Below, in pieces: positions 6,639 through 58,898 of a stretch of 64,000 bases of DNA. Position 1 is the first letter of the stretch; every line of letters begins with the position of its first letter. A program made the translations under genes and the position numbers. The DNA comes from a virus (Duplodnaviria; Heunggongvirae; Uroviricota; Caudoviricetes): the IMG/VR virus record IMGVR_UViG_3300035698_029829, positions 7,427 through 71,426 of that record. One strand, written 5' to 3'. The notes under the pieces were generated by a model that made no database searches, had not been told where the DNA came from, and saw only the letters and a list, made by a program, of their open reading frames with translations.

Positions 6639-6734
6639 TAACGCTGCCGCCTCTGGAAAGAAGATAAGGACACGACAAGAGCCACCGGGCGGACCTCGGA
6701 GGCACCCAACATAGGCACCCAAAGGAGGAACGAC

Positions 6735-7436
6735 ATGGGCGTTCTAGGAATTGTGGGCAGCGCGGCCCAAGGAAACGCGGCAGGGGGCCTGGGGCGCTAC
6801 GACGTAAAGCGCAAGAATAGCTGGATTCTGCACTTTTCGAACTTCGGCTCCGAGGTCTTAAAAAATTCACTAACCATCCAGCTAAACTCGGCGACACGCC
6901 CCAGCTTCAGCACCGATGCCCAAGAACTTTTCTGGTGCAACGAGAGCTGGTTCGTCGCCAGCAAGCCGAAATACGGTGAGCTAGCGGTGGAGTTCTACGA
7001 TGCTCTTCCGACACAACTGGACTATTCCTATGTCCAAGCAGGTGTCAGCTCGCCACATCCGGACGGCAACGCCAATATGATTTCGGCAGGCCAGATTCTC
7101 TACGACTGGTGGCTCGCTATCTACGACCCCAGTTCCGGACGACTTGGCCTAGCCGCTGACTACAAAGCTGACGGCTTCATCACGGTTTACAACAGCGTAG
7201 ACACACCTGTTGAACGCTGGATGTACATCGGCTGTTTCCCCACTTCCATCGACTACGGATCACTGGAATACTCGGGGGCAGGCGATCCATTAACCATCGA
7301 CACCTCTTTCAAGTACGACAAGGCGCTGCGCCTGGCGAACCCGACGAGCGAACTGGAACCCACCAGTATCGACGAACAGCGCGGCCCCGAAAGCTACTCG
7401 CCGCTTGGCTTGAACTTGGTATCCGGCGCAGCCTGA
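6735..7436 (+). CDS. Tail tube protein (gp19-like)
   Basis: SD AAGGAGG; W..IYDP..G.LG...DYK and W...GCFPTSIDYG.LEY pattern; position after sheath. Confidence 0.8.
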   Translation: MGVLGIVGSAAQGNAAGGLGRYDVKRKNSWILHFSNFGSEVLKNSLTIQLNSATRPSFSTDAQELFWCNESWFVASKPKYGELAVEFYDALPTQLDYSYVQAGVSSPHPDGNANMISAGQILYDWWLAIYDPSSGRLGLAADYKADGFITVYNSVDTPVERWMYIGCFPTSIDYGSLEYSGAGDPLTIDTSFKYDKALRLANPTSELEPTSIDEQRGPESYSPLGLNLVSGAA

Positions 7437-7465
7437 TAGCGGCCTGAGAGGTAAACGAGAGTCAT

Positions 7466-7490
7466 CCCGCCCCAGCAACGGGGCGGGGTT
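7466..7490 (+). terminator. GC-rich hairpin after tail tube gene
   Basis: CCCGCCCC-AGCAAC-GGGGCGGG then TT. Confidence 0.45.
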
Positions 7491-7559
7491 ATGAGTGAGC
7501 GTGAGGGCGCAAACGCCCCGAGCAATGGAGTCCAGAACCTCAAGAGGGAGATCACTACT

Positions 7560-19146: not shown

Positions 19147-20337
19147 TCATCCTTTCACTCCACCTTTCTTCTCGCCGCCTTTGACAACGGCGAAGGGTCG
19201 AATCACATCCTTTATCTCCACGACAACGCCTTTCTGGGCGTTGATAACGTAATCCTCGTCCTTGTAAGCACGCGGAGCCTCGTCCAGCGTATCCGCACTC
19301 ACCGGCGCGAGGATACCAGCCATATCGGCCTGGAATTCACCCAGATCCAGCGTCTTCTTGGCCTTCGAGCGTCCCATCAGACGGCCCGCGCCGTGCGACG
19401 CCGAGGACAGGTACTCCTCGTTACCGAGGCCCACCGTCACGTAGACACCCGCGCCCATGCTGATCGGGATCACCCCGAGCTGGCCCTTGTCTGCCGGAGT
19501 CGCGCCCTTACGGTGTAATACGCCGTCCGGTCGAACCACCGCGTGGTTGTGGTTCTCGTTCACCATCCCTTCAAACATCGGCCGCTGCTCCCACTTGGAG
19601 AAGCCAAGTGTAGTCAGCGCCGCAATCATCATTCGGCGACGATTCTCCAGCGCGTATTCCAGGAAGAAGTCCAAGTCCTGCATGTACGCCTGGCCCAGAT
19701 CCGAATTGAGGGCGAAGAACCGATCCTTCTTGGCAATCCGCATATACACGTCCGCCGATTTCCAGCCCGGCCCGCGCGACCCCGAATGGATCGTAACACA
19801 AACCTCGCCGGTTTGCTCGCTGACGCCCAGCTCCAGGAAGTGGTTGCCCGCGCCGAGCGTGCCAACCTGGTGCCCAAGCTTCGCGTTGATCTCCTGCTCC
19901 TTCCTTTTTACGTCCACTCGGCCCTCGGCCAGTTCCGGATCAAAGGAGAACCGGAACGACTTGTACTCCTGTCGCTGCGCGTGGTTCGAGTTTAGGCCCA
20001 CCGGAATAGTCTCGAACAACCGCTGCCACACCGGCCGCACGTTGTGTTCCCGCACATCGGCGTCATCGCGCGACCCGTGGAATAGCTGCTCGAAGGTTCG
20101 GCCCGTACGAACCAAGCACATGCCGCAACCCTGGTCGTAACCAACGTAATACGGACTCACCATGCCATCGAGCAAAGCAACCCCGCCGATGGGTAGGTCG
20201 TAGCCCTGGTGCACGTCCGGCATCACAACGAGCCGCTTCAGAAACGGCAGTTCCAGCGCCGCGTATATCTGCTGCTGTGCGCCTTGCTCGATCTCGTGCA
20301 TGGGCACCAACATCCATAATTTTTCGATCTTACTCAT
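19147..20337 (-). CDS. rtcB: RtcB RNA ligase
   Basis: MPDVH, DQGCG, GAGNHFLE, HSGSRG, NHN, HRKGAT, SHGAGR, EAP.AYK. Confidence 0.96.
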   Translation of the reverse strand: MSKIEKLWMLVPMHEIEQGAQQQIYAALELPFLKRLVVMPDVHQGYDLPIGGVALLDGMVSPYYVGYDQGCGMCLVRTGRTFEQLFHGSRDDADVREHNVRPVWQRLFETIPVGLNSNHAQRQEYKSFRFSFDPELAEGRVDVKRKEQEINAKLGHQVGTLGAGNHFLELGVSEQTGEVCVTIHSGSRGPGWKSADVYMRIAKKDRFFALNSDLGQAYMQDLDFFLEYALENRRRMMIAALTTLGFSKWEQRPMFEGMVNENHNHAVVRPDGVLHRKGATPADKGQLGVIPISMGAGVYVTVGLGNEEYLSSASHGAGRLMGRSKAKKTLDLGEFQADMAGILAPVSADTLDEAPRAYKDEDYVINAQKGVVVEIKDVIRPFAVVKGGEKKGGVKG

Positions 20338-33522: not shown

Positions 33523-33527
33523 TTAAG

Positions 33528-33602
33528 TTACCAGGGAAGGAATCGAACCTCCAGTCTTCGAGCTTTTAACGACTCGACGCGCTACCACTGCACCACCCGG
33601 TA
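33528..33602 (-). tRNA. tRNA with expanded (8-10 nt) anticodon loop, identity unclear
   Basis: TACCGGG/CCTGGTA, normal D and T arms, TCGAG-TCGTTAAAAG-CTCGA. Confidence 0.65.
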
Positions 33603-33606
33603 TTAG

Positions 33607-33681
33607 TGGTGCGCCAGGTAGGAATTGAACCCACGTGGGCGGAGTTAGAACCCGCTGCCTAAACCATTCGGCCACTGGCGC
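33607..33681 (-). tRNA. Amber suppressor tRNA (CTA)
   Basis: GCGGG-TT-CTA-AC-TCCGC anticodon arm, intact cloverleaf, A73-CCA. Confidence 0.8.
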
Positions 33682-36461: not shown

Positions 36462-36593
36462 TGACCGCGAGAGTTGGCGGTAACGGTGATTACTACGGGG
36501 ATCGAACCCGCATGACCCTTTCGGGTCGTCAGTTTTGTGGACTGATGCCTAAACCAATTCGGCGAAGTAACCGGTACCTGTGCTGCGCGGCCA
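36462..36593 (-). ncRNA. Y RNA-like module carrying a complete class II tRNA (anticodon ACA)
   Basis: TGGCCGCG/CGCGGTCA, CAGCACAG/CGCCAACTCT loop, N8 stem continuous with acceptor GGTTACT/AGTAATC. Confidence 0.72.
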
Positions 36594-37614: not shown

Positions 37615-37687
37615 GGCCGACGACAGGAATCGAACCTGCAACATCCGCATTACAGGTGCGGTGCTCTACCAATTGAGCTACGTCGGC
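37615..37687 (-). tRNA. tRNA-Thr(TGT), C33
   Basis: Loop CC-TGT-AA. Confidence 0.88.
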
Positions 37688-37693
37688 AAATTT

Positions 37694-38038
37694 TGGACGT
37701 GCGGGGAATTGAACCCCGGTCCTGAATGGTCCAGATTGAGCTACTACGTGCGTAGTCCGCGATTTAATGTCGCCGGTCGCGCTCCCACGGACGGGATCAC
37801 TATGGCCTTTTCCGCCTTTATCTCGGTTAATCACCGACGGAGTCAATCAACCCAGCCACCTGTTTGTGACGCCTCTTCCACTCCCGTTGGCCCGGAACAG
37901 AGAAACGGGTCGCTTAATTAAGCGGCCAGGAGTTCAATGTCGGCATCTGAACTTTGGTCAGTTTTTTACGAGGCCAACTGACCAACCTCGGCACGCAACT
38001 TTCACCTTCACACATCCAGTCGAATCCGATTCACGCCC
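37694..38038 (-). ncRNA. ssrA: tmRNA
   Basis: 5' GGGCGTG..GGATTCGAC, 3' T arm and CACGTCC-A with G3-U70; tag (A)DQSSDADIELLAA* after AAAAAACT. Confidence 0.92.
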
Positions 38039-38062
38039 ATATTTCAAAAAGCCGCAATAGCC

Positions 38063-38197
38063 TTTACGGCGGAGCCCCGACATTTTTCATCCGGGTGGCA
38101 GGCAAGGATGTTCTTCTGTGGTCAAAGAGGGGTGCACGACCCTCTACACGGAGTCCCTACACGCTGCAAATGGCTTTAGCCACTCTCCCGTAAAAGC
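38063..38197 (-). ncRNA. Candidate structured ncRNA (array unit A)
   Basis: Closing stem GCTTTTACGG/CCGTAAAGGC, preceded by boxA-like site. Confidence 0.5.
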
Positions 38198-38224
38198 TAT
38201 TTTTCAAAGATCAAAAGAAAGGCC

Positions 38225-38335
38225 CGGGAATGTGGCCCTCACCAACCTTTCCAGCCTTTCCTATTCTTCGAGAGGTCTCTTACTCTCGGACGGTTATTAC
38301 TACTGTTCCAGTATCAGAGTGACCGGCCACATTCC
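38225..38335 (-). ncRNA. Candidate structured ncRNA (array unit B)
   Basis: 12-bp closing stem GGGAATGTGGCC/GGCCACATTCCC. Confidence 0.55.
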
Positions 38336-38355
38336 CTATTTCAAAGATCGAAATT

Positions 38356-38505
38356 AGCATCGTTCAGATGACCACTGCGGGGTTATTGCTGAGGTTTCCC
38401 TCGACTTTATGGCGGCCTCTGCCCGACTCCTGATCCAGCGTCCCAGATTCCCCGAATTCCCGCGTCACGGGTTGTGAGGAGCCGTGATCACCTGAACGAT
38501 ACCAA
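38356..38505 (-). ncRNA. Candidate structured ncRNA (array unit C)
   Basis: About 18-bp closing stem ATCGTTCAGGTGATCAC/GTGGTCATCTGAACGAT. Confidence 0.55.
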
Positions 38506-38536
38506 CCCTGAAATTTCAAAGAGCGAAGAGCGAAAC

Positions 38537-38719
38537 TTTAGCTGGTGTGCTACTACGCCAAAAGGGGGTTCCACCTTACCGTCTCCGGGGTGCTTCACCA
38601 CTTCCCCATTTACCCGCTGGCAGAACCTTTCTTGCTTTTACCACAAGGGGCTTATTACCGACGGTGGTTCGCCCTACTCTTTAGAGGGTGGCTGCCTCTA
38701 AGCCAACCTTCCAGCTAAA
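38537..38719 (-). ncRNA. Stand-alone mimic of the 23S rRNA L11-binding domain (H42-H44) with large insertion
   Basis: GCTGGAAGGTTGGCTTAGAGGCAGCCACCCTCTAAAGAGT...GCGTAGTAGCACACCAGC matches E. coli 23S 1051-1108 with compensatory pairs. Confidence 0.8.
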
Positions 38720-38889
38720 ATATTAAAGAACGAAGTCATAGGGCTCCGCGTGCCGGTTGACCCAACCGTAAGCGAGCACGTCGTCGCAGCCTCGCTATTC
38801 CGCGACGAACGAAGAACCCTTGAGGCGCATCCTACCAAACCTCGTGAGGTTTGTCAAGAGTTCTTATTACGTTTTTTGAAATTTTGTAA

Positions 38890-38963
38890 GGCCAGCGACA
38901 GGAGTTGAACCTGCGACATCTCGCATACGAAACGAGCGCTCTACCAATCTGAGCTACGCTGGC
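38890..38963 (-). tRNA. tRNA-Thr(CGT)
   Basis: Loop TT-CGT-AT. Confidence 0.9.
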
Positions 38964-39145: not shown

Positions 39146-39259
39146 ATACGAGCCAACAGGTCTGTCGAGGACGAGCCTGTTGGAAAAACCGGGGAGGAGG
39201 ACGGCCCCCTCCCCGGGGTATTTCAATTTTACGCGGCATCTCTCTATTTAATTGTCAAA

Positions 39260-39637
39260 GATCGCCTTGCGCTGCGTTGCGCTGCGCGCCGCACAATTAC
39301 CAGGTCCTAAAACGTCAAAAGCCTCCCAAGTTCCCTTGAGAGGCTTCCGACTGTTGGTGACGAGGTCTGGTTTAGTCGGAAGCCCCCCGTATAGGCACGA
39401 TACCGAGCAGGCTATCAGCGGTGGACGGCAATGCCGTCACGGCCGCCGAACGCACTCCTGCTGGGCACGACGCGGTTAGCGTCGCAGCTAAGCGAGCTGT
39501 CTGTATGTGCGTGTTACGGTTCATTTCCAACCACTCCATGCGCCTTTTGGCACTAAATTTTGTTCGCGAGATAAGCGCGCCAGGCGGCCTGTGCATCTCG
39601 AAAGAAACGAAGTAGCCCAGCACTGTGCTGCGCGAAC
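39260..39637 (-). ncRNA. Large structured RNA beginning with the Y RNA-like module
   Basis: Starts at promoter 39667; GCGCAGCACAG-TGCTGGGC-TACTTCG, partner GCCCAGCA at 39459-39466, several hairpins, tandem CGCAGCGCAA near 3' end. Confidence 0.65.
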
Positions 39638-39834: not shown

Positions 39835-40266
39835 ATGAATTCGTTCAAAGATGTCATTTTTTTCATTCTTGGAATTATAGGGGTTATCTCCATTTGGGTG
39901 GGCCTTTTGATGCTCCGGAGGGATATTCGGGCCGTTTTAACGAGGAAACCGCCCCTCCGGAAAATCCCCAGCCCCAGTAACCCGACCCTGCCGCATGAAA
40001 TCGCGGAAGCCCTGAAAAACTGGGATAAAAAGCCCCAAGAAAAGGGCTTTCAGCAAGGACTCGCAGGGGATAAGGAACACACCCTGATCTGGTGGACAGA
40101 GGATGAAACATGGCGTTCAACGAGCTTCCGCCTTGCAGAAGCGAAAGCAGAAAACGATCTACCGAAATTCGAGCGGATCATAGCCAGAGCTGGCGCGACC
40201 GCTGTGGCCTATTTCCGAGCCAAGCGTGCAAAAGAAATGGATGAAGAGAAAAAAGAAGGAAAATAA
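39835..40266 (+). CDS. Membrane-anchored hypothetical protein
   Basis: SD AGGAGG; N-terminal TM helix. Confidence 0.65.
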   Translation: MNSFKDVIFFILGIIGVISIWVGLLMLRRDIRAVLTRKPPLRKIPSPSNPTLPHEIAEALKNWDKKPQEKGFQQGLAGDKEHTLIWWTEDETWRSTSFRLAEAKAENDLPKFERIIARAGATAVAYFRAKRAKEMDEEKKEGK

Positions 40267-40267
40267 T

Positions 40268-41158
40268 TTGTTAAAACAATCCCACAACGTAATCCACGGG
40301 GACGCCCTCAGCACCCTACAACTCCTGCCATCCGGCTCGATTCACTGTGCGATCACCTCGCCGCCCTACTACGGCTTACGCAACTACGGTGTTGCTGGAC
40401 AGATCGGCGCAGAACCAACGCCTCAAGAATACGTCGCTCGATTGACTGAAATTTTCCGCGAACTACGCCGTGTGTTGCGCGACGACGGCACCTTCTGGCT
40501 TAACCTCGGCGATAGCTACACGAGTGGCAATCGAACACGGCGCGCACCTGATAAGAAAAATCCAATAAGAGCGATGTCCTACCGAGCACCAACCCCAAGC
40601 GGGTTGAAAGAAAAAGACCTCATCGGCATCCCCTGGCACGTCGCCTTCGCGCTCCAAGAAGACGGGTGGTACCTCCGCTCCGACATAATCTGGCACAAGC
40701 CAAACGCCATGCCTGAGAGCATCAAAGACCGCCCAACAAAGGCACACGAGTATGTATTTCTATTAACCAAAAGCCCTCGCTACTTTTACAACGCGGATGC
40801 CGTAAAAGAACCCGAAGTCTGCGGACGTAAGAGGGGTCCCGCGCTCCATCCTTGCAAAGATACGAACGGAAATTCGGGTTTATCACGGAGAGAATCGACC
40901 GGTTTTCGCAATCGACGCACTGTCTGGACAATAAACACTAGACCCTTTAAGGGCGCACACTTCGCGGTGTTTCCCGAAGATTTAGTCGAACCTTGTCTTC
41001 TTGCCGGTTACCCAGTTGACGGCATCGTGCTCGACCCACTTTGCAGCTCTGGAACAGTCGGCGTCGTCGCCAAGAAACACGACAGATCATTCATTGGAGT
41101 CGACCTTAACGCCGATTATTGCCAAATGGCTAAACAACGGATTGAAAAAAAATTATGA
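40268..41158 (+). CDS. N4-C/N6-A DNA methyltransferase (beta class)
   Basis: TSPPYY, W.K.N..PES, HFA.FP; SAM motif reads DPLCSSGT (degenerate). Confidence 0.85.
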   Translation: MLKQSHNVIHGDALSTLQLLPSGSIHCAITSPPYYGLRNYGVAGQIGAEPTPQEYVARLTEIFRELRRVLRDDGTFWLNLGDSYTSGNRTRRAPDKKNPIRAMSYRAPTPSGLKEKDLIGIPWHVAFALQEDGWYLRSDIIWHKPNAMPESIKDRPTKAHEYVFLLTKSPRYFYNADAVKEPEVCGRKRGPALHPCKDTNGNSGLSRRESTGFRNRRTVWTINTRPFKGAHFAVFPEDLVEPCLLAGYPVDGIVLDPLCSSGTVGVVAKKHDRSFIGVDLNADYCQMAKQRIEKKL

Positions 41159-41727
41159 ACGAGCCAAAGGAATCCTTGGAAGATATTCGCCGCAAGCTGG
41201 GCGATTGCCAGCGCTGTGAACTCGCGACGACGCGCCGCAACCTGATCTTCGGCTCCGGCGACCCCGCCGCGTGCCTGATGATCGTCGGTGAAGCCCCTGG
41301 CGAGGCCGAGGATGTAATCGGTGAGCCATTCGTAGGACGCGCAGGGCAGGAACTAATGAAATGGCTGGCCGCCATGTCGCTCAGCCGCAACCAGGTCTAC
41401 ATCACTAACTGCATCAAGTGCCGTCCGCCGAATAACCGAACGCCCTACGACCAAGAGCGCCACACTTGCCTCCCCTTCCTGCGCCGCCAGGTGGCAGCTG
41501 TCGCCCCGCGCGTGATCCTGGCACTGGGTACCCCGGCAATCCAGAGCCTGCTGCCCGGGATGGGCACCATCACCCACCTGCGCGGTCAGCAGTTAGAATA
41601 CGAAGGCGTCCCCCTCATCGGCACTTATCACCCTTCGGCCGTCCTCCGTGATCGCCCTAAACTGGCGAACGTGGTTGCCGATCTCGGAGTGCTCGTCAAA
41701 ATCCTGTACGGAAAAAAGGAGAATTAA
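41155..41727 (+). CDS. Uracil-DNA glycosylase family 4
   Basis: C..C, GEAPG..ED..GEPFVGRAG, TNCIKCRPP.NR.P, YHPS. Confidence 0.92.
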   Translation: MNEPKESLEDIRRKLGDCQRCELATTRRNLIFGSGDPAACLMIVGEAPGEAEDVIGEPFVGRAGQELMKWLAAMSLSRNQVYITNCIKCRPPNNRTPYDQERHTCLPFLRRQVAAVAPRVILALGTPAIQSLLPGMGTITHLRGQQLEYEGVPLIGTYHPSAVLRDRPKLANVVADLGVLVKILYGKKEN

Positions 41728-41729
41728 AC

Positions 41730-42182
41730 ATGGACAAGAAGCTGATCTCAGTCACTGCCGACGATGTGATCCGCGTCCTCAAAGAGGCGTTCGATCTCGA
41801 CCCCACCGCCATCCAAATACTAATCGACCACCGTGTACCCTGCAACGAGGCGCTCGCCGACCATCCCACCATCCAAGTAGGAACCGCCGAGAATTGGCGC
41901 AAGTACCGACCTAAATCCCATAACCTCCCCAAAAACGCTGTCCACACAATCGGGCTACTCGGCCTGCTTAACGGCGTCTTCGGCAAGCCTGATGGTGGCC
42001 CTATCGCAGGCGCGTACGACTTCATCTGCGACTTCTGTGGAGCCACAAACGTTCCCGAATTGGACGGCAAGCGGTCGGGCGATGACTGCCCGCTCTGCGT
42101 CAACGGCACTATTCGTCTCGGTCCGATTTTCGACTTCAAAAACCTGTGGGCTCCGGAGAAGCCGAAAGAAGATAAGGAGTAG
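41730..42182 (+). CDS. Hypothetical protein with C-terminal zinc ribbon
   Basis: CDFC...CPLC. Confidence 0.6.
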   Translation: MDKKLISVTADDVIRVLKEAFDLDPTAIQILIDHRVPCNEALADHPTIQVGTAENWRKYRPKSHNLPKNAVHTIGLLGLLNGVFGKPDGGPIAGAYDFICDFCGATNVPELDGKRSGDDCPLCVNGTIRLGPIFDFKNLWAPEKPKEDKE

Positions 42183-42205
42183 GGATTAAAAAATAGAGGT
42201 AAAGA

Positions 42206-42742
42206 ATGAGCCACACCAAGCGCGGCGGCGTAATCTGGCTAACGGGACTCAGCGGCTCCGGCAAAACTACGCTCGCCGTGGCCCTGCGCGAGGCGCTCTT
42301 GACCCATTTCGGCATTTATGCCGTCGCCCTTGACGGCGATGAGGTGCGCCAAGCCCTGGGAACCTCCGGTTTTACACGCGCCAACCGAGACGCCCACATC
42401 ACACGCATGGGAAGATTAGCCTCGTTATTGGAGAAGCAAAATCACTACGTTATCTGCTCCTTCGTCAGCCCTTACGCCGAAACGCGCCAGGAAGTAAGAA
42501 CGACGTGTTCTCGCTTCCTGGAGGTCTTCATGGACTGCCCGCTGGAGGTCTGTGAAGAACGAGACCCGAAGGGCCTCTACGCCCGCGCGCGGAGAGGAGA
42601 GTTAAAGGGATTCACAGGGATCGACGATCCCTATGAGAAGCCGCATCTACCCGACGTTCACATTCATTCCCATACCATGACGATAGAGCACGAGGTCGAC
42701 CTCGTACTCCAAAAGATGATCGCGCGTTGGGTTACCGACTGA
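42206..42742 (+). CDS. cysC: Adenylyl-sulfate kinase
   Basis: TGLSGSGKTT, LDGD.VR, SFVSPY, RDPKGLY, FTGIDDPYE.P. Confidence 0.93.
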   Translation: MSHTKRGGVIWLTGLSGSGKTTLAVALREALLTHFGIYAVALDGDEVRQALGTSGFTRANRDAHITRMGRLASLLEKQNHYVICSFVSPYAETRQEVRTTCSRFLEVFMDCPLEVCEERDPKGLYARARRGELKGFTGIDDPYEKPHLPDVHIHSHTMTIEHEVDLVLQKMIARWVTD

Positions 42743-42780
42743 CTCAATATCAGTTTCATAAGCCTGTGGATAAAGAAAAT

Positions 42781-43887
42781 CTAAACCCCAAGACATTTGG
42801 TTTCAAGATATTCGATCTGAAGACGCAATTCACGTACATAAGCTACGTTTTTTTCAATTCTTAACTTTTTACCAGATACTTTCTTAACGAGACCACCGAC
42901 AACCCATTTATCAAGTTCATTGGCAATCTGGTCGTGAAGAAAACCGATCTCACTATTAAGATCATTAACCTCTTTATCAAGCTCATCGGCCCTCTGACGC
43001 AACCTTTCGGATAAACCGCGCATCTCCTCTGCGATATAATCTGAAGCCAAATGATGATATTTTCTCGACTTCTCAATCCCCAAATAATTTCGACCCAGTT
43101 TCAAAGCTTCGATGGCGGTCGTTCCCGAACCCATAAATGGGTCCAATACAAGATCGCCAGGCTTTGAAAGGAGTTTGATGAACCAAGCGAACACCTTCCC
43201 GCAGGCCATAGCACTGTGATTTTTGTACGTTCTTCCGGTCGGGAAGCACAGAACGTTGGTCGGATAAGCAAATTCACGACCAAGCCAGTTTTCTTCCTTC
43301 CTCGCGCAGCCACTCCCATTCTTAGACCGAGTATGTTTATTGTCGTTTGCTTTCTGACGGTTGAGGCGCGTCTTGGCCCATTCACCCGTCGGCACCATCA
43401 CCGCCTCTTGATCCATATAAAAATGCTTCTGCTTCGTAAAGTGCAAACCCCATTCCCAAGCATTGCGAAACCTGTTCGGCCACTTCCCAGGAAAAGGGTT
43501 GGGCTTGGTCAAGGCGTAATAATCGGTATTGATCCAGCCCTGCTGTTTAGTCATGGCGATAATGAGTTCTAAAACATACAGGTGCCGCCCCCCGTTCGCC
43601 GTCGTTCCCTCCTTGATGTTCAAGAAGAAAGAGCCAGTCGGTTTTAAGATTCTGAAAAGTTCTCTGGAGATAGGTAGGAACCACTCGACGTAACGATCCG
43701 GATCAACACCGCCGTAAGAAGCCTTCCTTTTATTACCATACGGCGGCGAGGTGGCGATTAGATCAACTGATTCTGAAGGGATGTCGCACAACAGTTTGGA
43801 GCAGTCTCCCAAAAGCACCCGATTTACGAACTCGCTCATGACCGTATCCTCCAAAGAAAGGATACACTTCCTTGGAAGGTTTGTCAA
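42781..43887 (-). CDS. N4-C/N6-A DNA methyltransferase with C-terminal coiled tail
   Basis: TSPPY, VLDPFMGSGTT; likely start at MSEF. Confidence 0.88.
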   Translation of the reverse strand: MTNLPRKCILSLEDTVMSEFVNRVLLGDCSKLLCDIPSESVDLIATSPPYGNKRKASYGGVDPDRYVEWFLPISRELFRILKPTGSFFLNIKEGTTANGGRHLYVLELIIAMTKQQGWINTDYYALTKPNPFPGKWPNRFRNAWEWGLHFTKQKHFYMDQEAVMVPTGEWAKTRLNRQKANDNKHTRSKNGSGCARKEENWLGREFAYPTNVLCFPTGRTYKNHSAMACGKVFAWFIKLLSKPGDLVLDPFMGSGTTAIEALKLGRNYLGIEKSRKYHHLASDYIAEEMRGLSERLRQRADELDKEVNDLNSEIGFLHDQIANELDKWVVGGLVKKVSGKKLRIEKNVAYVRELRLQIEYLETKCLGV

Positions 43888-43910
43888 GAGTTTTTATGTT
43901 CATATTCAAT

Positions 43911-44663
43911 TTAGAACACTCTTTCAATCCAATTTTTCTTGAACCGAACTAGATTTAAGATGTGACGGCGTTCAATTATTCCAGGACGGCGGATAATGCG
44001 GAATTTATAAGCCGATCCGGGTACGATCTCGATTACTGTAAATTGGGAGCCATGAGGCTGCCAAGTGAAACGATGCTTATTCGTCCCTTTATCAAAGCCC
44101 TCGAAATTACCCCTTCGATTGATTTCCCACTTATAGTTGGATGGAGGATAGCGGACCGCCTCAAACTCAAACAAGACGAATTCCAGCGTACTCATGTTCC
44201 GTACCAGTACCACAATCCGCAAATCGTCATGATTATTGAACGACTGATTGACGCGCTCATTCCAAATATTCAGAACGGCGACCCCCGTTTCCTCCACGTT
44301 CGCCTTCGGATCGCTGATGCCATAGGAAAACGCAGGAGAATTACGACCAGTGATGAGCCTCACGCTAGGTTGTTTGAACGGCTTTTTTGCCTGCACCGTT
44401 TTCACGGACCAAGAACAGCTATTCCATATTACATCCGTAACGCCCAGTGGCTTGTTAAAATGCGTGCCGCTGATGGAATCCGCGAACATCTCCGCGAAGT
44501 CATCACCGGAGATATTGTAGCCAACGGCCAACCGATGCACAATTTGACCGCCTATCCCGATAACCACATCATCGGGAAATTCCCCAAGCGGATAAAGGCT
44601 GTGACGTGCTTTGTCATGCCCGCGCAATTTGGGTGGTTTGGATGACACGTAAAACTCCTTCAA
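43911..44663 (-). CDS. Putative type II restriction endonuclease
   Basis: Adjacent to C5 methyltransferase; D...SWSVKT could be a PD-(D/E)xK variant; AT-richer than flanks. Confidence 0.45.
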   Translation of the reverse strand: MKEFYVSSKPPKLRGHDKARHSLYPLGEFPDDVVIGIGGQIVHRLAVGYNISGDDFAEMFADSISGTHFNKPLGVTDVIWNSCSWSVKTVQAKKPFKQPSVRLITGRNSPAFSYGISDPKANVEETGVAVLNIWNERVNQSFNNHDDLRIVVLVRNMSTLEFVLFEFEAVRYPPSNYKWEINRRGNFEGFDKGTNKHRFTWQPHGSQFTVIEIVPGSAYKFRIIRRPGIIERRHILNLVRFKKNWIERVF

Positions 44664-44777
44664 TTCCAGCTATCGCTAACGGCACGGGAACGGCATTTCC
44701 CATTTGCTAAAGCAGCATCTCGTTTGGAATCTCACCCACCGGATGCGGATCATTACGCAAAGATTTATCTCTTGTTT

Positions 44778-45674
44778 TTACCCATCCAACATTTTCTCAA
44801 TGATGGCCGCAACCACAGGAACGGCAACGGCGTTCCCCGCCTGTTTTCGCACCTGACCATAGCTACAAATGATCTCAAACGAATCAGGAAATCCCTGAAG
44901 CCGAAGCATCTCTCGCGAAGTCAACCGTCGTTTACCGTCAACGAGCAGATAATTATACGAAGCACTGGCCCGCAACGCGCAAGCATAAGGATGACTCGAC
45001 ACTTTCTTTGACTTATTCTCGTGCCAGATCGCCGGTTTTACCTTGGTGGAGTGCCTGGCACGCCGCGCATCCCGGATGTGTTTGCTGGCATTATAACGGG
45101 TATCCGGTTTCTTCTCCAAAACTTCCGAAAGTGGAAGCATCACCCGTTCTTCTTCGGGCCAACAAAACTTTTTACCCCTTTTCCCCCGCAAAGCTACGAT
45201 GAAAACACGTTCTCTCCGTTGCGGAAGTCCAAAGTTAATTGCATTGAGAATCCGATGATCTGTTCGATAGCCAAGATCATTTAAGGTACCAAGAATCTTC
45301 TTCAGCGCGCGCCCTTTGTTGTGTGTAGCCAGCTGCTTCACGTTTTCAAGGACAACCGCCTGTGGACGCTTTCTTTTGATAATTTTAACGAGTTCAAAAA
45401 AGAGCAGCCCCTTGGGATCAGAAAATCCCTTACGGCTGCCGATGATGGAGAAAGGCTGACAGGGAAATCCCGCCAACAGAAGATCGTAGTCGGGAAGGTC
45501 TCTAATTTTAACCTGCGCAATATCGCCGACGGGGCAAAACCCGAAGTTGTGTTCATACACGCGACGACAAGGCTCGTCGGTGTCACAGGCAAAAACACAC
45601 CGGAGGCCAAGAGAAGACGCAGCGACGTGAAAACCACCAATGCCACAGAACATATCAGCGAACGTCTCTATCAA
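44778..45674 (-). CDS. C5-cytosine DNA methyltransferase
   Basis: FCGIGG, GFPCQPFS, ENV, QRRERVF, GNAV. Confidence 0.95.
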   Translation of the reverse strand: MIETFADMFCGIGGFHVAASSLGLRCVFACDTDEPCRRVYEHNFGFCPVGDIAQVKIRDLPDYDLLLAGFPCQPFSIIGSRKGFSDPKGLLFFELVKIIKRKRPQAVVLENVKQLATHNKGRALKKILGTLNDLGYRTDHRILNAINFGLPQRRERVFIVALRGKRGKKFCWPEEERVMLPLSEVLEKKPDTRYNASKHIRDARRARHSTKVKPAIWHENKSKKVSSHPYACALRASASYNYLLVDGKRRLTSREMLRLQGFPDSFEIICSYGQVRKQAGNAVAVPVVAAIIEKMLDG

Positions 45675-48549: not shown

Positions 48550-48693
48550 GAGTCCGGCGGCGAGAGTGAGCGGCGTGGGGGTATTGGCTCACTTGGTGGG
48601 AGTTGAACCCACGTCCTTCAGATTAATAGTCTGCTGCTCTACCATCAGAGCTTCAGGTGAAGTACCCCACGCCTGTGCTGCGCCGCCAGGCTC
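48550..48693 (-). ncRNA. Y RNA-like module carrying a complete tRNA-Asn-like body (anticodon ATT)
   Basis: Begins about 14 nt after the Ro60 stop; GGCGGCG/CGCCGCC, CAGCACAG/CGCTCACTCT, N8 stem; tRNA at 48585-48660 with U1-A72, G73, CCA. Confidence 0.78.
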
Positions 48694-48706: not shown

Positions 48707-50866
48707 TCAATATGTTGCCCGAATCTCTTCGAGCGTCATCCGCTTCCGCCCGCTCTCGCTGACGGTCGCCTCAATCACCGTTTCATCGACCTCCAGATCG
48801 GCGCTCGACACCTCTGCTTTGCGCCCCACCTCAGCGGACACCATCATGTCGAAGATGTACTCGCTGAAGCCCGACAGCAGGTTTACGTTCGTGTGCCGGT
48901 CGAGCGGCGTCACCGCCATGTGGTTGTGGTCGAGGTTGACACAGTGCAACCAAGTATCCGGCTGCATCCGCTTGAACTTCTCCCACTCCCCAGCGAAGGA
49001 TAGCAACGCCCGACCATCGTTCCCCGCGAAACTGTCGGTGTAGATATTCTGGTCGTTCCAGAACTGCTGATCCGAGAACACGATCACCCGCTTGAACTTA
49101 CGACCCGTCTGAAGCAGCAACGACGGCACCAAGTGAACGTTCGTGCTGTGCCCAACGTACAAGTCGGAGTACAGTTCGTTGCGAGCGATTCGTTCCATGC
49201 TGGATACGACCGAATCGCGCTTCAGCACCTGACGGATCTGTGCGCTCTCACCGAAAGCGACAACCAGTGTGCGCGGGTTACGCTTGGCCGCGATGGCTCC
49301 GAAGAGAGCAGCCACCTCACGACAGCTGATCTCAGAACCCTGGCCCCTGGCGTCCTTCTTCTCGTCGCCACTTGACACCCGGTTATCCATCGATCCGGAC
49401 AGGTCGACCAAAATCGCGGTGTACTCGTCGGCCGCATCAGCTTCGCTCAAATTTGGTACGCTCTCGGCCTGAAGCTCCATCGCCTCGATAACCGCCTCAT
49501 GGACCTCATCGAGTTGCGGGTGCTTCTCCCAACCGGTCTTATCGCTCTTCCCAAAGGTATTCCCGCTCCATAGCTTCGCATGGATCGAACCCTTGGTGTA
49601 CAGGCCCTCAGTACCCAGCGCCCGCAGTGCCGACCAGTAACGGTACGGGAACTGCCGCGCCTTCGCGATGGCTTGCCGGTTCGTCAGCTTCGAAATCACG
49701 AGTCGCACCGTCTCGGCGTTACGCTCATCCACGAGTTTCAAGCCCTCGGCCTTCTTGACCTTCGCCCGGGCCTCGGCCCCGGCGGTCAAGATGTTCCGGA
49801 CGTTCCGCAAGAGATTCATGTACGACGTGTTCCGAGCAACCCACGCCCAAGTGCGAGCATCGGAGCCCCATTGCGACGTAACGTTCTCCTGCGTCAAACG
49901 GGCAACCTTGACGAGCCGCTCCGTCTCCGCGTCGAACTCCATCCGCTTGAATGCCTTGACGCGAGCCACGATCAGCGGCATCTCACGCTCGGCATCGAAC
50001 GGTACGATCTGCCCGCCGCAGTAGGTCTTGCCGTTGTCGGTTGATCGCTCGCAGATACCGTAATTATCAGCGAACAGCGTTCCACATTTCTCACAGACGC
50101 CGGTTGGCAGCCTGCGTTTGAGCAGGTAAAACCACTTCGCCGAGGACCACCGCTTGCGCCGACCTTTCTTACGGAAATCGACGAGATGCAGCAAATCCGT
50201 AAACGTCGGGTGCTGCTCAGTATCGTATTTCAGGAGCAATCCGGCGTCGAACCTGGTCAGCGCGTCCATAAGCCCGCGCAGAAAGGCGTTCGGGTGCTTC
50301 TTGGCACGCACGTAACCCTTGTTCACATCCAAATCACCGAAGAGTGCTTCGTAGGCGGCCAGCGCCACACGCGGCTCGTCGGCTCGCAGGCAAATCTTCG
50401 GAGCGTACAACCGCACCAGTGACTGCTGGTCAAGCTTCGTCCCTGCGAGTGGTGCCTGGAGTACCCGCGTACCGTCTTCGTGGGCGGCCACAGCCAGGAG
50501 TACCTGAGCTGCCGTCCGGATGTTAAGTTTGTCGCGCGCGAACGCGGCGATCTTAAACAAGTCGCTGGCGTACCCATCCGTGCGAGCCGCAACCTCTTGA
50601 GCCGTCTGAATCAGGACATTGTCGCCCTCAGTCAACCCCAACTCATCACGCCCCTTGTCGTAGAAACTGGTCTCCTTGAAGAAGCCCGCTGCTACCAAGT
50701 TGAGCAAGCGTTCCGACGGGTCCTTGATGTTGAATGCCAACGCACCCTCCGCGTTCTCGCCCACCTCGTCCAATTCGCGCAGGTCGACCTCAGTCTTCAC
50801 CTCGACGGCGCGAGCGCGATCCTTCAGAGTTTTCTGCGTGTTCTTCTGCATTCCGATCTTAGCCAT
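48707..50866 (-). CDS. rsr: Ro60/TROVE-domain RNA-binding protein with C-terminal vWA domain
   Basis: ERL.......E.SFY, FARDKLNIRT, RADE, KY, LLRNVRNIL, RQFPYRY.SA, VDLSGSM, FSD.Q. Confidence 0.88.
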   Translation of the reverse strand: MAKIGMQKNTQKTLKDRARAVEVKTEVDLRELDEVGENAEGALAFNIKDPSERLLNLVAAGFFKETSFYDKGRDELGLTEGDNVLIQTAQEVAARTDGYASDLFKIAAFARDKLNIRTAAQVLLAVAAHEDGTRVLQAPLAGTKLDQQSLVRLYAPKICLRADEPRVALAAYEALFGDLDVNKGYVRAKKHPNAFLRGLMDALTRFDAGLLLKYDTEQHPTFTDLLHLVDFRKKGRRKRWSSAKWFYLLKRRLPTGVCEKCGTLFADNYGICERSTDNGKTYCGGQIVPFDAEREMPLIVARVKAFKRMEFDAETERLVKVARLTQENVTSQWGSDARTWAWVARNTSYMNLLRNVRNILTAGAEARAKVKKAEGLKLVDERNAETVRLVISKLTNRQAIAKARQFPYRYWSALRALGTEGLYTKGSIHAKLWSGNTFGKSDKTGWEKHPQLDEVHEAVIEAMELQAESVPNLSEADAADEYTAILVDLSGSMDNRVSSGDEKKDARGQGSEISCREVAALFGAIAAKRNPRTLVVAFGESAQIRQVLKRDSVVSSMERIARNELYSDLYVGHSTNVHLVPSLLLQTGRKFKRVIVFSDQQFWNDQNIYTDSFAGNDGRALLSFAGEWEKFKRMQPDTWLHCVNLDHNHMAVTPLDRHTNVNLLSGFSEYIFDMMVSAEVGRKAEVSSADLEVDETVIEATVSESGRKRMTLEEIRATY

Positions 50867-50940
50867 GACACTTTCCTCCTCCGGCGAGAAATTGGTGTTG
50901 CGCCGGATTTTACGACCAGCCACCATGACCAGCCGTCACC

Positions 50941-54093: not shown

Positions 54094-54774
54094 ATGAAGC
54101 CCCAATTTTCTCCAGCTGAGTTCGCCAGCGCAAAAGGTTTTGCAAAACTACCTCTGATGTGCTGCCAATGTGGCAGCATCTTTTTCACGTCAAGAGTTTC
54201 AATCCAACAACAAATCAGCCATCCAGAGCGGAACCGCCTAAAATTTTGCGGTCGAAAATGCCTTAGCGAAGCACAAAATAAGACCAGAACCCTTACGTGC
54301 ACAAATTGCAAAGTTCCCATCAAACGAAAATTCAGCCAATTCAAGAAATCCAAAAACCATTTTTGTTCTCGCTCGTGCGCGGCCAGTTGGAACAATCTCC
54401 ACAAACAAAAAGGAACTCGCGTTTCCAAGCTAGAAATCTTCCTGCAAAAAGAGCTTTCCGTAGCCTATCCAGAAAGAAAGTTCCTCTTCAACGACAAAAC
54501 AGCCATAGATTCAGAGCTGGACATTTACATTCCAGACATTGCTCTTGCCTTTGAACTAAACGGTCCCACTCATTATAAACCTCTCTTCGGATTACGAAAA
54601 TTCGCCTCCATCCAACAGGGCGATGCCAAGAAAGTGCACGCTTGCAGGAACTACGGCATCGCGCTGTACACCCTGAACGTCAGTGGAATGAATAAATTTT
54701 CAAAGAGCCAAGCGATTCCATTCCTAAAAAAGATTCAAAAAATTATTGACTCGAACTCTGAACTCGTTCAATAA
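54094..54774 (+). CDS. Zn-finger plus PD-(D/E)xK/Vsr-like putative homing endonuclease
   Basis: Repeated CxxC..FC motifs, ELDIYIP...LAFELNG..HY; AT-rich, opposite strand to neighbours. Confidence 0.7.
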   Translation: MKPQFSPAEFASAKGFAKLPLMCCQCGSIFFTSRVSIQQQISHPERNRLKFCGRKCLSEAQNKTRTLTCTNCKVPIKRKFSQFKKSKNHFCSRSCAASWNNLHKQKGTRVSKLEIFLQKELSVAYPERKFLFNDKTAIDSELDIYIPDIALAFELNGPTHYKPLFGLRKFASIQQGDAKKVHACRNYGIALYTLNVSGMNKFSKSQAIPFLKKIQKIIDSNSELVQ

Positions 54775-56725: not shown

Positions 56726-58117
56726 TTACTGAGAAGCCAGAAATTCCCGAAGAAACATCCGGCCACCTTCCTCATCCTCAAACTTCCCGTCAAGCTGCGC
56801 TTCGAAACAGGCATCCAGCACAGGACGAAAGTGCTTGCCTGGGTTCCAACCCAGATCCATCAGGTGCCGACCCATCACAATGGGTTTCGGGGCCTGATCT
56901 CGCACGCCGAGTTCTTCGATGCGTTCCAAGAGCCACGTTGCAAACCGGTTATCAGGCTTCAAAGGAGGCCGACCGGCCTGATCGCACGCGGCTACCCGCA
57001 ACAACCGATCTACGCGCTTAACGCGACGAGCGAGCCGCCGGATCGCCGAACTAGAGGCTTTTACCTCGAAAAGTTCAAGGGGCTTCAGGTGTTCCACAAC
57101 CAAGTCGCAAACCTCGGTGTCGAGGCCGTGTTCGTTGGTCAAGCGTGCCAGGAAGCTCCGCGTCGGTGCGGCCCCCGCCGCTTCGTGTCCCTTCGACTTC
57201 CAGCGTCCATCTAAGAACGCGGTCGTCTCAGGCTTACCAAAGTCATGACAGAGTACCGCCAACCCGACCACCAGGTCTTCGCGAGAATCGCCGGTGCGTG
57301 TATGCGCGAAGGCATCCAGACAGTGCTTGGTGTGTTCAAACACATCCCCCTCGGGATGCCACGCTGGATTTTGCGGGCAATCCACGAGAGCCTCGACCTC
57401 CGGAAAGAACCGAAGCCACCCTACCTCGCGCAGGAAGTCGAGTCCAAGCGACGGTCGAACTCCCCGCAGGAGTAACTTCTGCCACTCATCGAACAGGCGT
57501 TCCTTCGGCAGATCCTCGATGTCGCCGCGCCGACAAACCTCAACGAGATCGTCGGACGGCTCAAAGTCGAACCGTGCCAGGAACTGCGCCGCTCGTAAGA
57601 CCCTCAATGGGTCCTCCAAAAAAGCGTCGGGGTTGGGGTGACCGGGCATCCGAGAAACCGGATGTAACAGGCGTGCCCGCAGATGCGTCTGACCGTCAAA
57701 CGGATCAAACAGATCATCGGTTAACGGGTCCCAGGATAAAGAGTTGATGGTGAAATCTCGACGTGCCGCCGCTTCAGCGACGGTCATGGTTGGATCGGAG
57801 TTGATCTCGAAACCTCGGTGTCCGAGACCTCGCTTGCTCTCGCGGCGAGGGATGGACACGTCGACGGGGAAATCCTTCAGTTTGAGTACACCGAAATCTT
57901 TACCAACCAGGTCAAGTGCGAAACCATGCGACAGCGTGTCGACCAATCTGTCGGGGCTAAGGCCGAAAACCTCTACGTCGAGATCATTCGGCTCATTCTC
58001 CAATAGAAGATCGCGCACACAACCGCCAACGAGTAGCGCGCGTCCACGCGCCCTCTCTACGCTCCGGCAAAGGGAAAGCAGCGCTTCCCGCGCCGGAAGC
58101 CGATGAAGTGCTTCCAT
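56726..58117 (-). CDS. cca: CCA-adding enzyme/tRNA nucleotidyltransferase with HD domain
   Basis: VGGCVRD, DLDVE, RRDFTIN, EDPLRVLR, ERL..EW.K, H.EGDV..H, LCHDFGK. Confidence 0.9.
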   Translation of the reverse strand: MEALHRLPAREALLSLCRSVERARGRALLVGGCVRDLLLENEPNDLDVEVFGLSPDRLVDTLSHGFALDLVGKDFGVLKLKDFPVDVSIPRRESKRGLGHRGFEINSDPTMTVAEAAARRDFTINSLSWDPLTDDLFDPFDGQTHLRARLLHPVSRMPGHPNPDAFLEDPLRVLRAAQFLARFDFEPSDDLVEVCRRGDIEDLPKERLFDEWQKLLLRGVRPSLGLDFLREVGWLRFFPEVEALVDCPQNPAWHPEGDVFEHTKHCLDAFAHTRTGDSREDLVVGLAVLCHDFGKPETTAFLDGRWKSKGHEAAGAAPTRSFLARLTNEHGLDTEVCDLVVEHLKPLELFEVKASSSAIRRLARRVKRVDRLLRVAACDQAGRPPLKPDNRFATWLLERIEELGVRDQAPKPIVMGRHLMDLGWNPGKHFRPVLDACFEAQLDGKFEDEEGGRMFLREFLASQ

Positions 58118-58147
58118 GATGTTCTCCCTTCGCGTTAATGTTGATAA

Positions 58148-58221
58148 CTCCTGGAGAGGGAATCGAACCCCCGACATCTCGGTTAACGGCCGAGCGCTCT
58201 GGCCTGCTGAGCTATCCAGGA
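58148..58221 (-). tRNA. tRNA-Asn(GTT), C33
   Basis: U1-A72, G73, loop CC-GTT-AA. Confidence 0.9.
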
Positions 58222-58898
58222 ATAATTCCGTACCTTTTAGCCCACTTCCGAACCGCATTGTCGGTCACTCCATACCGTTTGCCGATCTGCGTGAATGGGA
58301 TCTTCTCGTCAATCAGATTCATGAGTTCGTCTTTCGAGGGCCACTCGACTTTTCTGCGCGCCAACTGAAAGCACTTCTGTGAACAGAACTTCTGCCTTAT
58401 TTTCTTAGGAGCCCCACAGATAGGACAGGGATCAACAGGGGCCTCGCGCTTCGGAAAGGCTCTCGACTCATCGCGAAGGCTAGAAATACGCACGCGATAA
58501 TCCTCGGCCCAGAGCGGCTCTCGCCCGTTGCTCCCTTTTAACGGGGCAACCCTCAGCGAGCACCAGCTAGTACCAACAGCCTCTACCGGAACCAAATAAA
58601 CCTCATCCAGTTCAGGACAAAACACCCCAAAAAACTCACACTGGCCTCGGTAATTTCTTGTACCTCGCCCTCGGTGAGCATAGCTACTACACAAATTGAA
58701 CCCTATCGCACCGTTCTTCAAGCGACCCGTCTTAACCTGAATCCGCACAAAAACGCCGTCGCGATCAAGCACCAGGTCGTAGCGTTGATTATCGCCGAAA
58801 GGAAACAAGACAACCTCAGCCGCCTTCAACAAAGAAGCCATCACAGCCGCTTCTGACCGTTCGCCTATCGCCTTCGAGTTCATCTGCACCTCCAACAA
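58212..58898 (-). CDS. PD-(D/E)xK endonuclease of the group I intron-associated type
   Basis: G..SE, RYDLVLD..G..VRIQVKTG; CPIC and C-terminal HTH; TAG stop is U8-A9-G10 of tRNA-Asn. Confidence 0.78.
   Translation of the reverse strand: MLEVQMNSKAIGERSEAAVMASLLKAAEVVLFPFGDNQRYDLVLDRDGVFVRIQVKTGRLKNGAIGFNLCSSYAHRGRGTRNYRGQCEFFGVFCPELDEVYLVPVEAVGTSWCSLRVAPLKGSNGREPLWAEDYRVRISSLRDESRAFPKREAPVDPCPICGAPKKIRQKFCSQKCFQLARRKVEWPSKDELMNLIDEKIPFTQIGKRYGVTDNAVRKWAKRYGIIPG

Follow-up and report, generated by a model that had tools for sequence, protein, structure and literature searches.

A boxA-punctuated array of five structured RNAs, one of them a putative mimic of the ribosomal GTPase-associated centre, ahead of a phage tmRNA gene

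The RNA array and its five units

A stretch of 64,000 nucleotides (nt) from a tailed phage (Caudoviricetes), which corresponds to positions 7,427 to 71,426 of the IMG/VR record IMGVR_UViG_3300035698_029829 and is hereafter called the window, carries on its minus strand a run of structured non-coding RNA that is punctuated by boxA-like words and ends at a gene for transfer-messenger RNA (tmRNA). The complete viral record comprises 156.7 kb, with a CheckV completeness estimate of 62%, and contains 51 tRNA and tmRNA genes, every one of which is located on the minus strand. Positions given below are those of the window, and the features of the array are all on the minus strand.

The region at 38040-38830 contains no credible open reading frame (ORF). 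The longest ORFs on both strands encode 46-79 amino acids, and none of the ORFs matched Pfam. A PHROG match of the antisense strand of the fifth unit to phrog_37011 (E 0.0012) was regarded as negligible, and tblastn against phage genomes did not reproduce it. The array is headed by a sigma70-type promoter (38829..38857; TTGACA-17-TAGGAT with TG) that lies directly after tRNA-Thr(CGT) (38890-38963) and conforms to a phage consensus with 12 copies, AAAA(C/T)TCTTGACAAAC-N11-TGGTAG. In the slightly longer form AAAA(C/T)TCTTGACAAAC-N11-TGGTAGnnT, this consensus was found at 12 minus-strand sites of the window, such as 60212, 56187, 43890, 38860, 34521, and 17329, and its -35 region looks like the boxA word minus one T. 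The last long cistron of the array is the tmRNA gene (37691..38038; tag ADIELLAA), behind which tRNA-Thr(TGT/UGU) (37615..37687), a Shine-Dalgarno sequence, and a methyltransferase gene follow directly. No strong terminators or promoters were found within the array by terminator and promoter scans, and the global fold of the whole region of ~790 nt had a z-score of -2.7. The folding z-scores of the five units were computed against dinucleotide shuffles.

Five units could be folded between the promoter and the tmRNA, and a closing helix was present in five of five, with lengths of 8-25 bp. Unit 1 (U1; 38736..38823, ~88 nt) has a closing helix of ~10 bp and is the weakest of the five, its z-score of -1.1 not being significant alone. 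Unit 2 (U2; 38535..38721) is closed by 11-12 bp (z -1.6). Unit 3 (U3; 38351..38508, ~158 nt) is closed by ~25 bp and has a z-score of -4.8, with 0 of 200 shuffles as stable, and is the only unit that reaches the canonical stem length for RNase III. Unit 4 (U4; 38226..38336, ~111 nt) and unit 5 (U5; 38057..38200, ~144 nt) have closing helices of 12 and 13 bp and z-scores of -3.0 and -2.6, respectively; a terminator scan indicated that the 3′ strand of U5 could alternatively form a weak terminator-like hairpin at 38070-38051. An earlier note, made from the sequence without database searches, had described an ORF-free array of five self-contained RNAs downstream of a promoter and upstream of a tmRNA. 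The ORF, Pfam, and PHROG checks and the folding agree with this description in each respect, the units folding at nearly the positions that it gave.

Unit 2 and its phage relatives, and the four orphan units

It had also been proposed in the earlier note that one unit is an rRNA mimic and that the other units may be further translation-related mimics. When the units were compared with Rfam and by BLAST, as that note had suggested, the first part was confirmed for U2, which matched the large-subunit (LSU) rRNA model, and nothing rRNA-like was seen for U1 and U3-U5. The LSU match, obtained in a permissive Rfam scan, covers 38663-38712 around helix 43 (H43), and the core of U2 was the sole match of the array in a BLAST search of complete Escherichia coli genomes. 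U2 comprises, in order, an H42-like closing helix, H43, a junction, an inserted domain of ~115 nt, and the H44 loop. It aligns with genuine 23S rRNA fragments and with the family members described below in H43 (GGCUUAGARGCAGCC), the UUUAAAGA junction, and the H44 loop (GCGUARYAGC), which follow each other in the 23S order.

The core GGCUUAGARGCAGCCANCC was detected in 91 viral loci, and only 2 of these continue as genuine 23S rRNA. The remaining core-bearing loci have the layout of U2, with H42 replaced by a closing helix, followed by H43 and the UUUAAAGA junction. Beyond the junction, the U2-like RNAs continue with GUGGG and CCCUUU, between which lies an insert of variable length (60-300 nt), and then reach the H44 loop GGCGUAAUAGCACAC. 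The family set used here contains at least 57 distinct full-length members of 93-403 nt. Across these 57 relatives, on average 7.0 of the 8 positions of an 8-bp closing helix are paired, as compared with 3.97 ± 0.17 for shuffled partners (maximum 4.53 in 1000), and all four Watson-Crick pair types occur at most positions, that is, the helix covaries. An element of the insert, the GAGA-tetraloop hairpin GCACCCCGGAGACGGUAAGG, is conserved in a subgroup (window 38560-38610 and loci L007, L021, L038, L051, L070, and L087).

The genomic surroundings of the relatives are rich in tRNA genes, 392 of which lie on the same strand as the U2-like RNA and 1 on the opposite strand; 23 of 56 GAC-like RNAs lie within 15 nt of a tRNA or tmRNA (GAC, GTPase-associated centre of 23S rRNA). 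A GAC-like RNA directly abuts the tmRNA gene in two loci (L039, ~11373-11420, and L083, 10752-11313), which suggests that these two translation-related RNAs tend to travel together.

Judged from the LSU match, the alignment with 23S rRNA, and the covarying relatives, U2 is a member of an RNA family that is widespread in phages and reproduces the ribosomal domain bound by uL11, thiostrepton, and translation factors. The family corresponds to no Rfam family, and an incomplete search of the literature turned up no phage GAC mimic. From its near-identity with the L11-binding 58-mer, U2 is expected to bind uL11, the stalk base, or GAC-directed factors; no phage-encoded L11 was found in the 157-kb fragment. 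It was reported that the bacterial toxin Tre23 ADP-ribosylates nucleotides 1095-1098 of H44 (PMC8661411), which provides a concrete precedent for a decoy role, although that role itself is speculation.

With regard to the other four units, no relatives and nothing rRNA-like were found for U1 and U3-U5 in permissive Rfam scans with E values up to 10, in which sub-threshold matches to DUF805b and ctRNA_p42d were treated as chance. Searches with nhmmer against 2.5 Mb of RNA-gene loci and the whole record returned self-matches only and thus no paralogues, blastn against ~180 loci gave no homologues, and neither did the whole records behind L121, L153, L159, and L163 or phage GenBank entries (blastn and tblastn). 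BLAST against complete E. coli genomes revealed no similarity of these units to stable RNAs. The units are not mutual paralogues either (best pair z 2.8), and the GOLLD, ROOL, and HEARO models of Rfam did not match the array at the gathering threshold or at E values up to 10. The only hints of kinship are two short words: U1 and RNA B of the relative L093 have GGAAUAG(C)CGAGGCUGC in common (a 16/17-mer, z 5), and the 15-mer GUCCGAGAGUAAGAG of the U4 central hairpin also occurs in L153, which was its only match in IMG/VR when the window's own record was excluded. The proposal that these units are further translation-related mimics thus received no support from the Rfam, E. coli BLAST, and nhmmer searches. 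They are orphan RNAs that fold well overall and show no sign of rRNA mimicry. Their status as RNAs is based on folding energies, which are strong for U3, U4, and U5 and weak for U1, on their framing by helix and boxA, on an identical copy in a second sample, and on a recurring layout elsewhere.

boxA-type words and the recurrence of the layout

The boxA element of E. coli is UGCUCUUUAACA (PMC13753749), the gamma-proteobacterial consensus is GYTCTTTAANA (PMC5725501), and the rrn boxA of Bacillus subtilis is AUGAUCUUUGAAA, whose binding by NusB was observed by NMR (PMC13753749). From U2 onward, words of the form GNUCUUU(G/A)A(A/U)A end 0-5 nt 5′ of the next closing helix of the array. The first, GTTCTTTAATA (38721..38731; RNA GUUCUUUAAUA), conforms exactly to the gamma-proteobacterial consensus, and the second, GCTCTTTGAAA (38514..38524; RNA GCUCUUUGAAA), has one mismatch and is preceded by a partial duplicate, CGCUCUUC. 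The third and fourth are two copies of GATCTTTGAAA (38339..38349 and 38202..38212; RNA GAUCUUUGAAA), which equals the core of the B. subtilis rrn boxA. A degenerate boxA-like word, GCTTTTTGAAA (38042..38052; RNA GCUUUUUGAAA), in which C4 is changed to U, lies 3 nt before the 5′ end of the tmRNA.

The strict motif GNTCTTTRANA occurs 11 times in the 156.7-kb record, as compared with 1.6 ± 1.3 in shuffles (maximum 7 in 200); all 11 are on the minus strand, which is the RNA strand, and 10 of the 11 fall within a 38-kb region of RNA genes. Four strict words are contained in the 792-nt array (Poisson p 6.5e-8). Other copies are found before tRNA-Val, between tRNA-Tyr and tRNA-Gln, and 1 nt past the stop codon of a Ro60 gene, before a Y-like RNA. 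Another word, GAUCUUUGACA (39253..39263, minus strand), lies 37 nt before a strong terminator-like hairpin (39216-39189; 12 bp, 10 of them GC, with a U-run), after which tRNA-Ser follows; this layout fits conditional read-through. A copy at 54708 was not counted as evidence because it sits in a hairpin loop between convergent genes. The possibility that the spacer words are weak promoters was rejected, as no -10 element was present at a workable spacing.

The same kind of word was found before tmRNA genes well outside the window. A scan of viral contigs specified only TTTGAAA at 1-12 nt before the tmRNA 5′ end, and GNTC directly preceded TTTGAAA in 44 of 56 distinct viral tmRNA leaders as compared with 6 of 269 occurrences elsewhere in the same loci (Fisher 1e-36). 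In these 44 contexts (among L117-L181), a boxA-type word, GNUCUUUGAAA, is located 2-10 nt upstream of the tmRNA 5′ end. Since only 7 of the 44 are in tRNA-rich loci, many may be stand-alone or host ssrA genes. In bacteria, the word was detected before tmRNA in more than 120 genomes of many phyla (L189-L268 among them), with G at position 1 in 76 of 80; the taxa include Opitutia, Bdellovibrionota, Ignavibacteria, Balneolaceae, Gastranaerophilales, and Cloacimonadota. The word, viral or bacterial, often directly follows a sigma70 promoter. No earlier report of boxA before tmRNA was found in a literature search that was incomplete. In the complete chromosome of a halophilic member of Balneolaceae, the tRNAs and a GC hairpin of the 16S-23S spacer are followed by GUUCUUUGACA, and the rrn leader and the tmRNA leader contain GUUCUCUGACA and GUUCUUUGAAA, respectively. 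Similarity of the tmRNA, used as a pointer to the host of the phage, resulted in no assignment. The boxA-like spacer sites described in the earlier note are thus borne out by the published consensus, the halophile rrn spacer, and the conserved word of tmRNA leaders. The spacer words match authentic boxA, and their sequence and context suggest that they may recruit NusB/NusE.

Only four relatives of the region were recovered, one diverged (L093) and three identical (L094-L096). L094 represents an identical copy of the array in a second sample. L093 and L094 were obtained from salt-lake metagenomes (ENA ERZ27316756, ERZ27316532). In L093, the methyltransferase is 79% identical and the DNA ~75% identical; the promoter (~436-470), the order tmRNA, tRNA-Thr, methyltransferase, and a perfect boxA (GCUCUUUGAAAA, 4 nt before the tmRNA) are kept, and different RNAs and a small ORF lie between promoter and tmRNA. 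Scans of viral contigs for kin with the neighbouring methyltransferase and a 1237-amino-acid protein found nothing, a promoter probe returned 17 chance loci, none similar to the array, and a metagenome scan with the methyltransferase alignment yielded distant bacterial homologues only and no RNA array; three further contigs that were checked were bacterial too.

Similar layouts were observed in two other phage contigs. L121, an unrelated contig of 54 kb, has a boxA-punctuated array at 5751-7526 (minus strand) with four boxA words. It starts with a tRNA, a terminator, and two orphan RNAs, which have perfect closing helices of 10-11 bp, z-scores of -4.3 and -3.4, no Rfam match, and a boxA after each; further on follow a small ORF, a non-coding RNA, boxA, a non-coding RNA of ~450 nt, boxA, and the tmRNA. 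L153, a contig of 140 kb, contains at 1000-2350 (minus strand) a hairpin, boxA, and a unit with a long closing helix, followed by 1.3 kb of hairpin-rich non-coding sequence, boxA, and a tmRNA whose leader closely resembles that of the window. The layouts of L121 and L153 indicate that the succession of boxA, closing helix, and cargo recurs with unrelated cargo.

A candidate rRNA-operon-style array, its alternatives, and known systems

Taken together, the sequence and layout of the region give somewhat better than even grounds for regarding it as a Nus-dependent polycistronic stable-RNA operon that is laid out like a miniature rRNA operon. It was reported that boxA, together with NusB/S10, NusA, NusG, and SuhB, directs the formation of a transcription complex that resists Rho and intrinsic terminators (PMC10250234, PMC13753749), that rRNAs are enclosed by leader-trailer helices cut by RNase III, with the biogenesis of 16S rRNA and the 30S subunit requiring its helix (PMC10250234), and that boxA also protects CRISPR arrays and suhB (PMC13753749). 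By this scheme, host NusB-S10 would bind each nascent boxA of the array and, with NusA, NusG, and SuhB, would turn RNA polymerase into an rrn-type antitermination complex able to proceed through ~1.3 kb of untranslated RNA with neither Rho nor hairpins ending transcription. The complex would keep the 5′ strand of a given unit close to the polymerase until its 3′ partner strand has emerged, as was proposed for the 16S and 23S leader-trailer helices, so that each unit, and the tmRNA as well, would close its 5′-3′ helix. The units would then be freed by host RNases; RNase III could plausibly cleave the 25-bp stem of U3, which is long enough for this enzyme, an RNase E-type activity could plausibly cut the AU-rich spacers, and RNase P would act at the tmRNA 5′ end. 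The freed RNAs would act in trans: U2 would present the uL11/stalk-base and factor-binding surface and may act as a titrant or decoy for proteins or toxins that target this surface, the tmRNA would rescue stalled ribosomes, and U1, U3, U4, and U5 would represent lineage-specific cargo.

Several observations weigh against such an operon. In rrn operons, boxA occurs in two copies, and its reiteration at intervals of 110-190 nt is without precedent there. The copy nearest to the tmRNA carries the C4 to U change at a critical position, where mutation abolishes the function of E. coli boxA (PMC5725501), and position 2 is A in two copies, which fits the B. subtilis consensus and not the gamma-proteobacterial one. 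U1 lacks a proper boxA, and its folding energy is unremarkable; only one stem appears suited to canonical RNase III cleavage. The high degree of structure and the G-richness of the array may make it a poor loading site for Rho even if boxA were absent. No phage-encoded NusB was found in the 157-kb fragment, so that the model has to rely on factors of the host. For U1 and U3-U5, the structures are based on thermodynamics, since no homologues were available for a covariation test. Finally, GAC-like RNAs of other phages sit between tRNAs and have a boxA in 1 of 56 cases, so that the spacer words could be processing signals.

The latter possibility is the alternative that survives best, although we consider it rather unlikely as a full explanation. 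It holds that the spacer words are not Nus sites but RNA-processing or leader determinants, serving RNase E/G, a phage endonuclease, or RNase P, and replacing the tRNA punctuation seen around GAC-like RNAs in other phages, which so often butt on tRNAs. The position of the word, just 2-10 nt from the mature tmRNA 5′ end where RNase P cuts, would suit such a role, as would the AU-rich, single-stranded spacers. RNase E prefers AU-rich single-stranded RNA. Yet the sites of this enzyme are far more degenerate than an 11-nt word with invariant G1, U3, and C4, and the word is identical to the NusB-binding boxA of B. subtilis rrn, is found at the canonical boxA position of the halophile rrn spacer, and in one copy precedes a terminator-like hairpin, which fits antitermination. 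Processing and Nus roles of the words are not mutually exclusive and can coexist.

It is improbable that only U2 and the tmRNA are functional and that U1, U3, U4, and U5 are filler or decaying remnants that happen to fold. The lack of homologues or paralogues in 2.5 Mb of related loci, the absence of the units from L093, and a fold of U1 no better than that of shuffles would be in line with such remnants, but U3, U4, and U5 are much more stable than their shuffles (z -4.8, -3.0, and -2.6), phage genomes are compact, an identical copy persists in L094, and L121 and L153 display the same layout with other orphan RNAs. In addition, a perfect closing helix and a separate boxA word frame each of these three units, U3, U4, and U5.

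A slightly less probable alternative is that the whole 790 nt form one multi-domain ornate RNA of the GOLLD/ROOL kind. Ornate RNAs of 600-800 nt are known beside phage tRNAs (PMC12286853), and a single RNA would agree with the global fold (z -2.7) and with the lack of strong internal terminators and promoters. The array did not match GOLLD, ROOL, or HEARO even at an E value of 10, each domain closes on itself, U2 stands alone between tRNAs in dozens of phages, and the same spacer word precedes the tmRNA, which is certainly a separate RNA; moreover, the same slot in L093 holds another RNA set and an ORF.

It is very unlikely that the array acts as a boxA sponge, in which phage RNAs with four to ten copies of the word titrate NusB-S10 off host rRNA operons and help to shut off host ribosome synthesis. 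The density of the words is indeed unusual (4 in 792 nt and ~10 in the RNA-gene region), and NusB availability was reported to be limiting and autoregulated via boxA sites (PMC5725501), but a sponge makes no sense for the single word before tmRNA in many bacteria, processing probably trims the spacers away, and the phage needs host ribosomes, carrying 49 tRNAs and a tmRNA to boost translation.

The window also contains genes for a Ro60-like TROVE protein (48707-50926), an RtcB RNA ligase, and a CCA-adding enzyme (19147-20337, 56726-58258), and five Y-like RNAs with the common handle GCGCAGCACAG-N8-YACUUCG...ACUCUCGC, one of which lies behind the Ro60 gene and is preceded by boxA. Least credible of all is the idea that U1, U3, U4, and U5 are Y-RNA-like partners of this TROVE protein, since, in spite of the three proteins named and of the long terminal helices that close Y RNAs (PMC4201824), the handle is absent from U1-U5, the units lack a tRNA-like module, and neither YrlA nor Y_RNA of Rfam matched them at E values up to 10; their membership of the phage's Y-RNA family was rejected.

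Some tRNA genes of the window are unusual. The tRNAs at 33527-33681, 48585-48660, and 36485-36572 are an amber-suppressor-type tRNA(CUA), a tRNA-Asn(AUU), and a tRNA-Cys(ACA), and a neighbour of the tRNA(CUA) was called by ARAGORN with a 4-nt anticodon, 'ttaa'. These tRNAs hint at oddities of stop codons or decoding. At least three DNA methyltransferase genes (two of N6/N4 and one of C5 type) lie at 40226-45674, just upstream of the RNA region, and the gene directly behind tRNA-Thr encodes a further S-adenosylmethionine-dependent methyltransferase.

If the rRNA-operon-style reading of the array is correct, phages borrow the antitermination and folding machinery of host rRNA synthesis for stable RNAs of their own, and the biology of Nus factors and boxA would reach well beyond rRNA, suhB, CRISPR arrays, and lambda. 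The occurrence of boxA before tmRNA in many bacterial phyla would then be a new part of tmRNA biogenesis. The array would yield phage RNAs that have not been described, and the function of non-tRNA RNAs in tRNA clusters would gain a defined ligand hypothesis, as the U2 family mimics a site that is bound by uL11, EF-G, and thiopeptides and modified by at least one bacterial toxin. Annotators would also gain a search grammar for RNA cassettes, namely boxA followed by a closing helix. A broader and clearly more tentative proposal is that boxA may serve as a general co-transcriptional closing clamp for stable RNAs with distant pairing ends, which bacteria use for tmRNA, and that phages may have made of it a cassette grammar (boxA, 5′ strand, cargo, 3′ strand) for interchangeable decoy RNAs, including a GAC copy that soaks up uL11, translation factors, or Tre23-type toxins.

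Among known systems, YrlA and Y RNAs with Ro60 resemble the present case in that the phage encodes a Ro60-like protein and in their long terminal closing helix; unlike them, the array units have neither the Y-RNA handle of the phage nor a tRNA-like module nor an Rfam YrlA match. Species 1 and 2 of phage T4 (rnaC and rnaD) are structured non-tRNA RNAs of ~120-140 nt that are co-transcribed with phage tRNAs and released by host RNases. We know of no report of boxA punctuation or of an rRNA-domain mimic for these two RNAs, and no sequence relation between them and the array units was found.

In U2, the 58-nt L11-binding GAC of 23S rRNA (E. coli 1051-1108) recurs nearly letter for letter: the H42-like closing stem is there, as are H43 with its A1067 loop, the UUUAAAGA junction, and the GCGUAAUAGC loop of H44. 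In contrast to the GAC within 23S rRNA and to the mimics in ribosomal protein leaders, such as the L10 leader, U2 is a free-standing phage gene among tRNAs, and its family has a variable domain of 60-300 nt just before H44.

In the CRISPR arrays of Salmonella and E. coli, in suhB, and in lambda nut, as in the phage array, boxA heads an untranslated RNA to stop premature termination, and lambda offers the precedent for the use of host Nus factors by a phage. These systems have a single boxA at the 5′ end, and lambda needs the N protein and boxB, whereas the phage array has many boxA copies, no recognisable N/boxB pair, and structured stable RNA products.

The closest parallels are bacterial rrn operons, such as rrnTAC of E. 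coli and those of B. subtilis. In both, an untranslated polycistronic transcript of stable RNAs includes tRNAs, boxA precedes the 5′ strand of a long-range closing helix by a short distance, the words are identical or nearly identical to known boxA, and a stem of RNase III length is present, in one unit of the array. The differences are that the cargo of the phage comprises five unrelated RNAs of 90-190 nt and a tmRNA rather than 16S, 23S, and 5S rRNA, that boxA is repeated before cistrons rather than occurring twice, that no boxB or boxC was recognised, and that the array is phage-encoded; the binding of Nus factors to its words is a prediction from sequence. The most fitting description of the array is a phage-borne version of the rRNA-operon design whose cargo includes one representative of a widespread RNA family together with four orphan RNAs.

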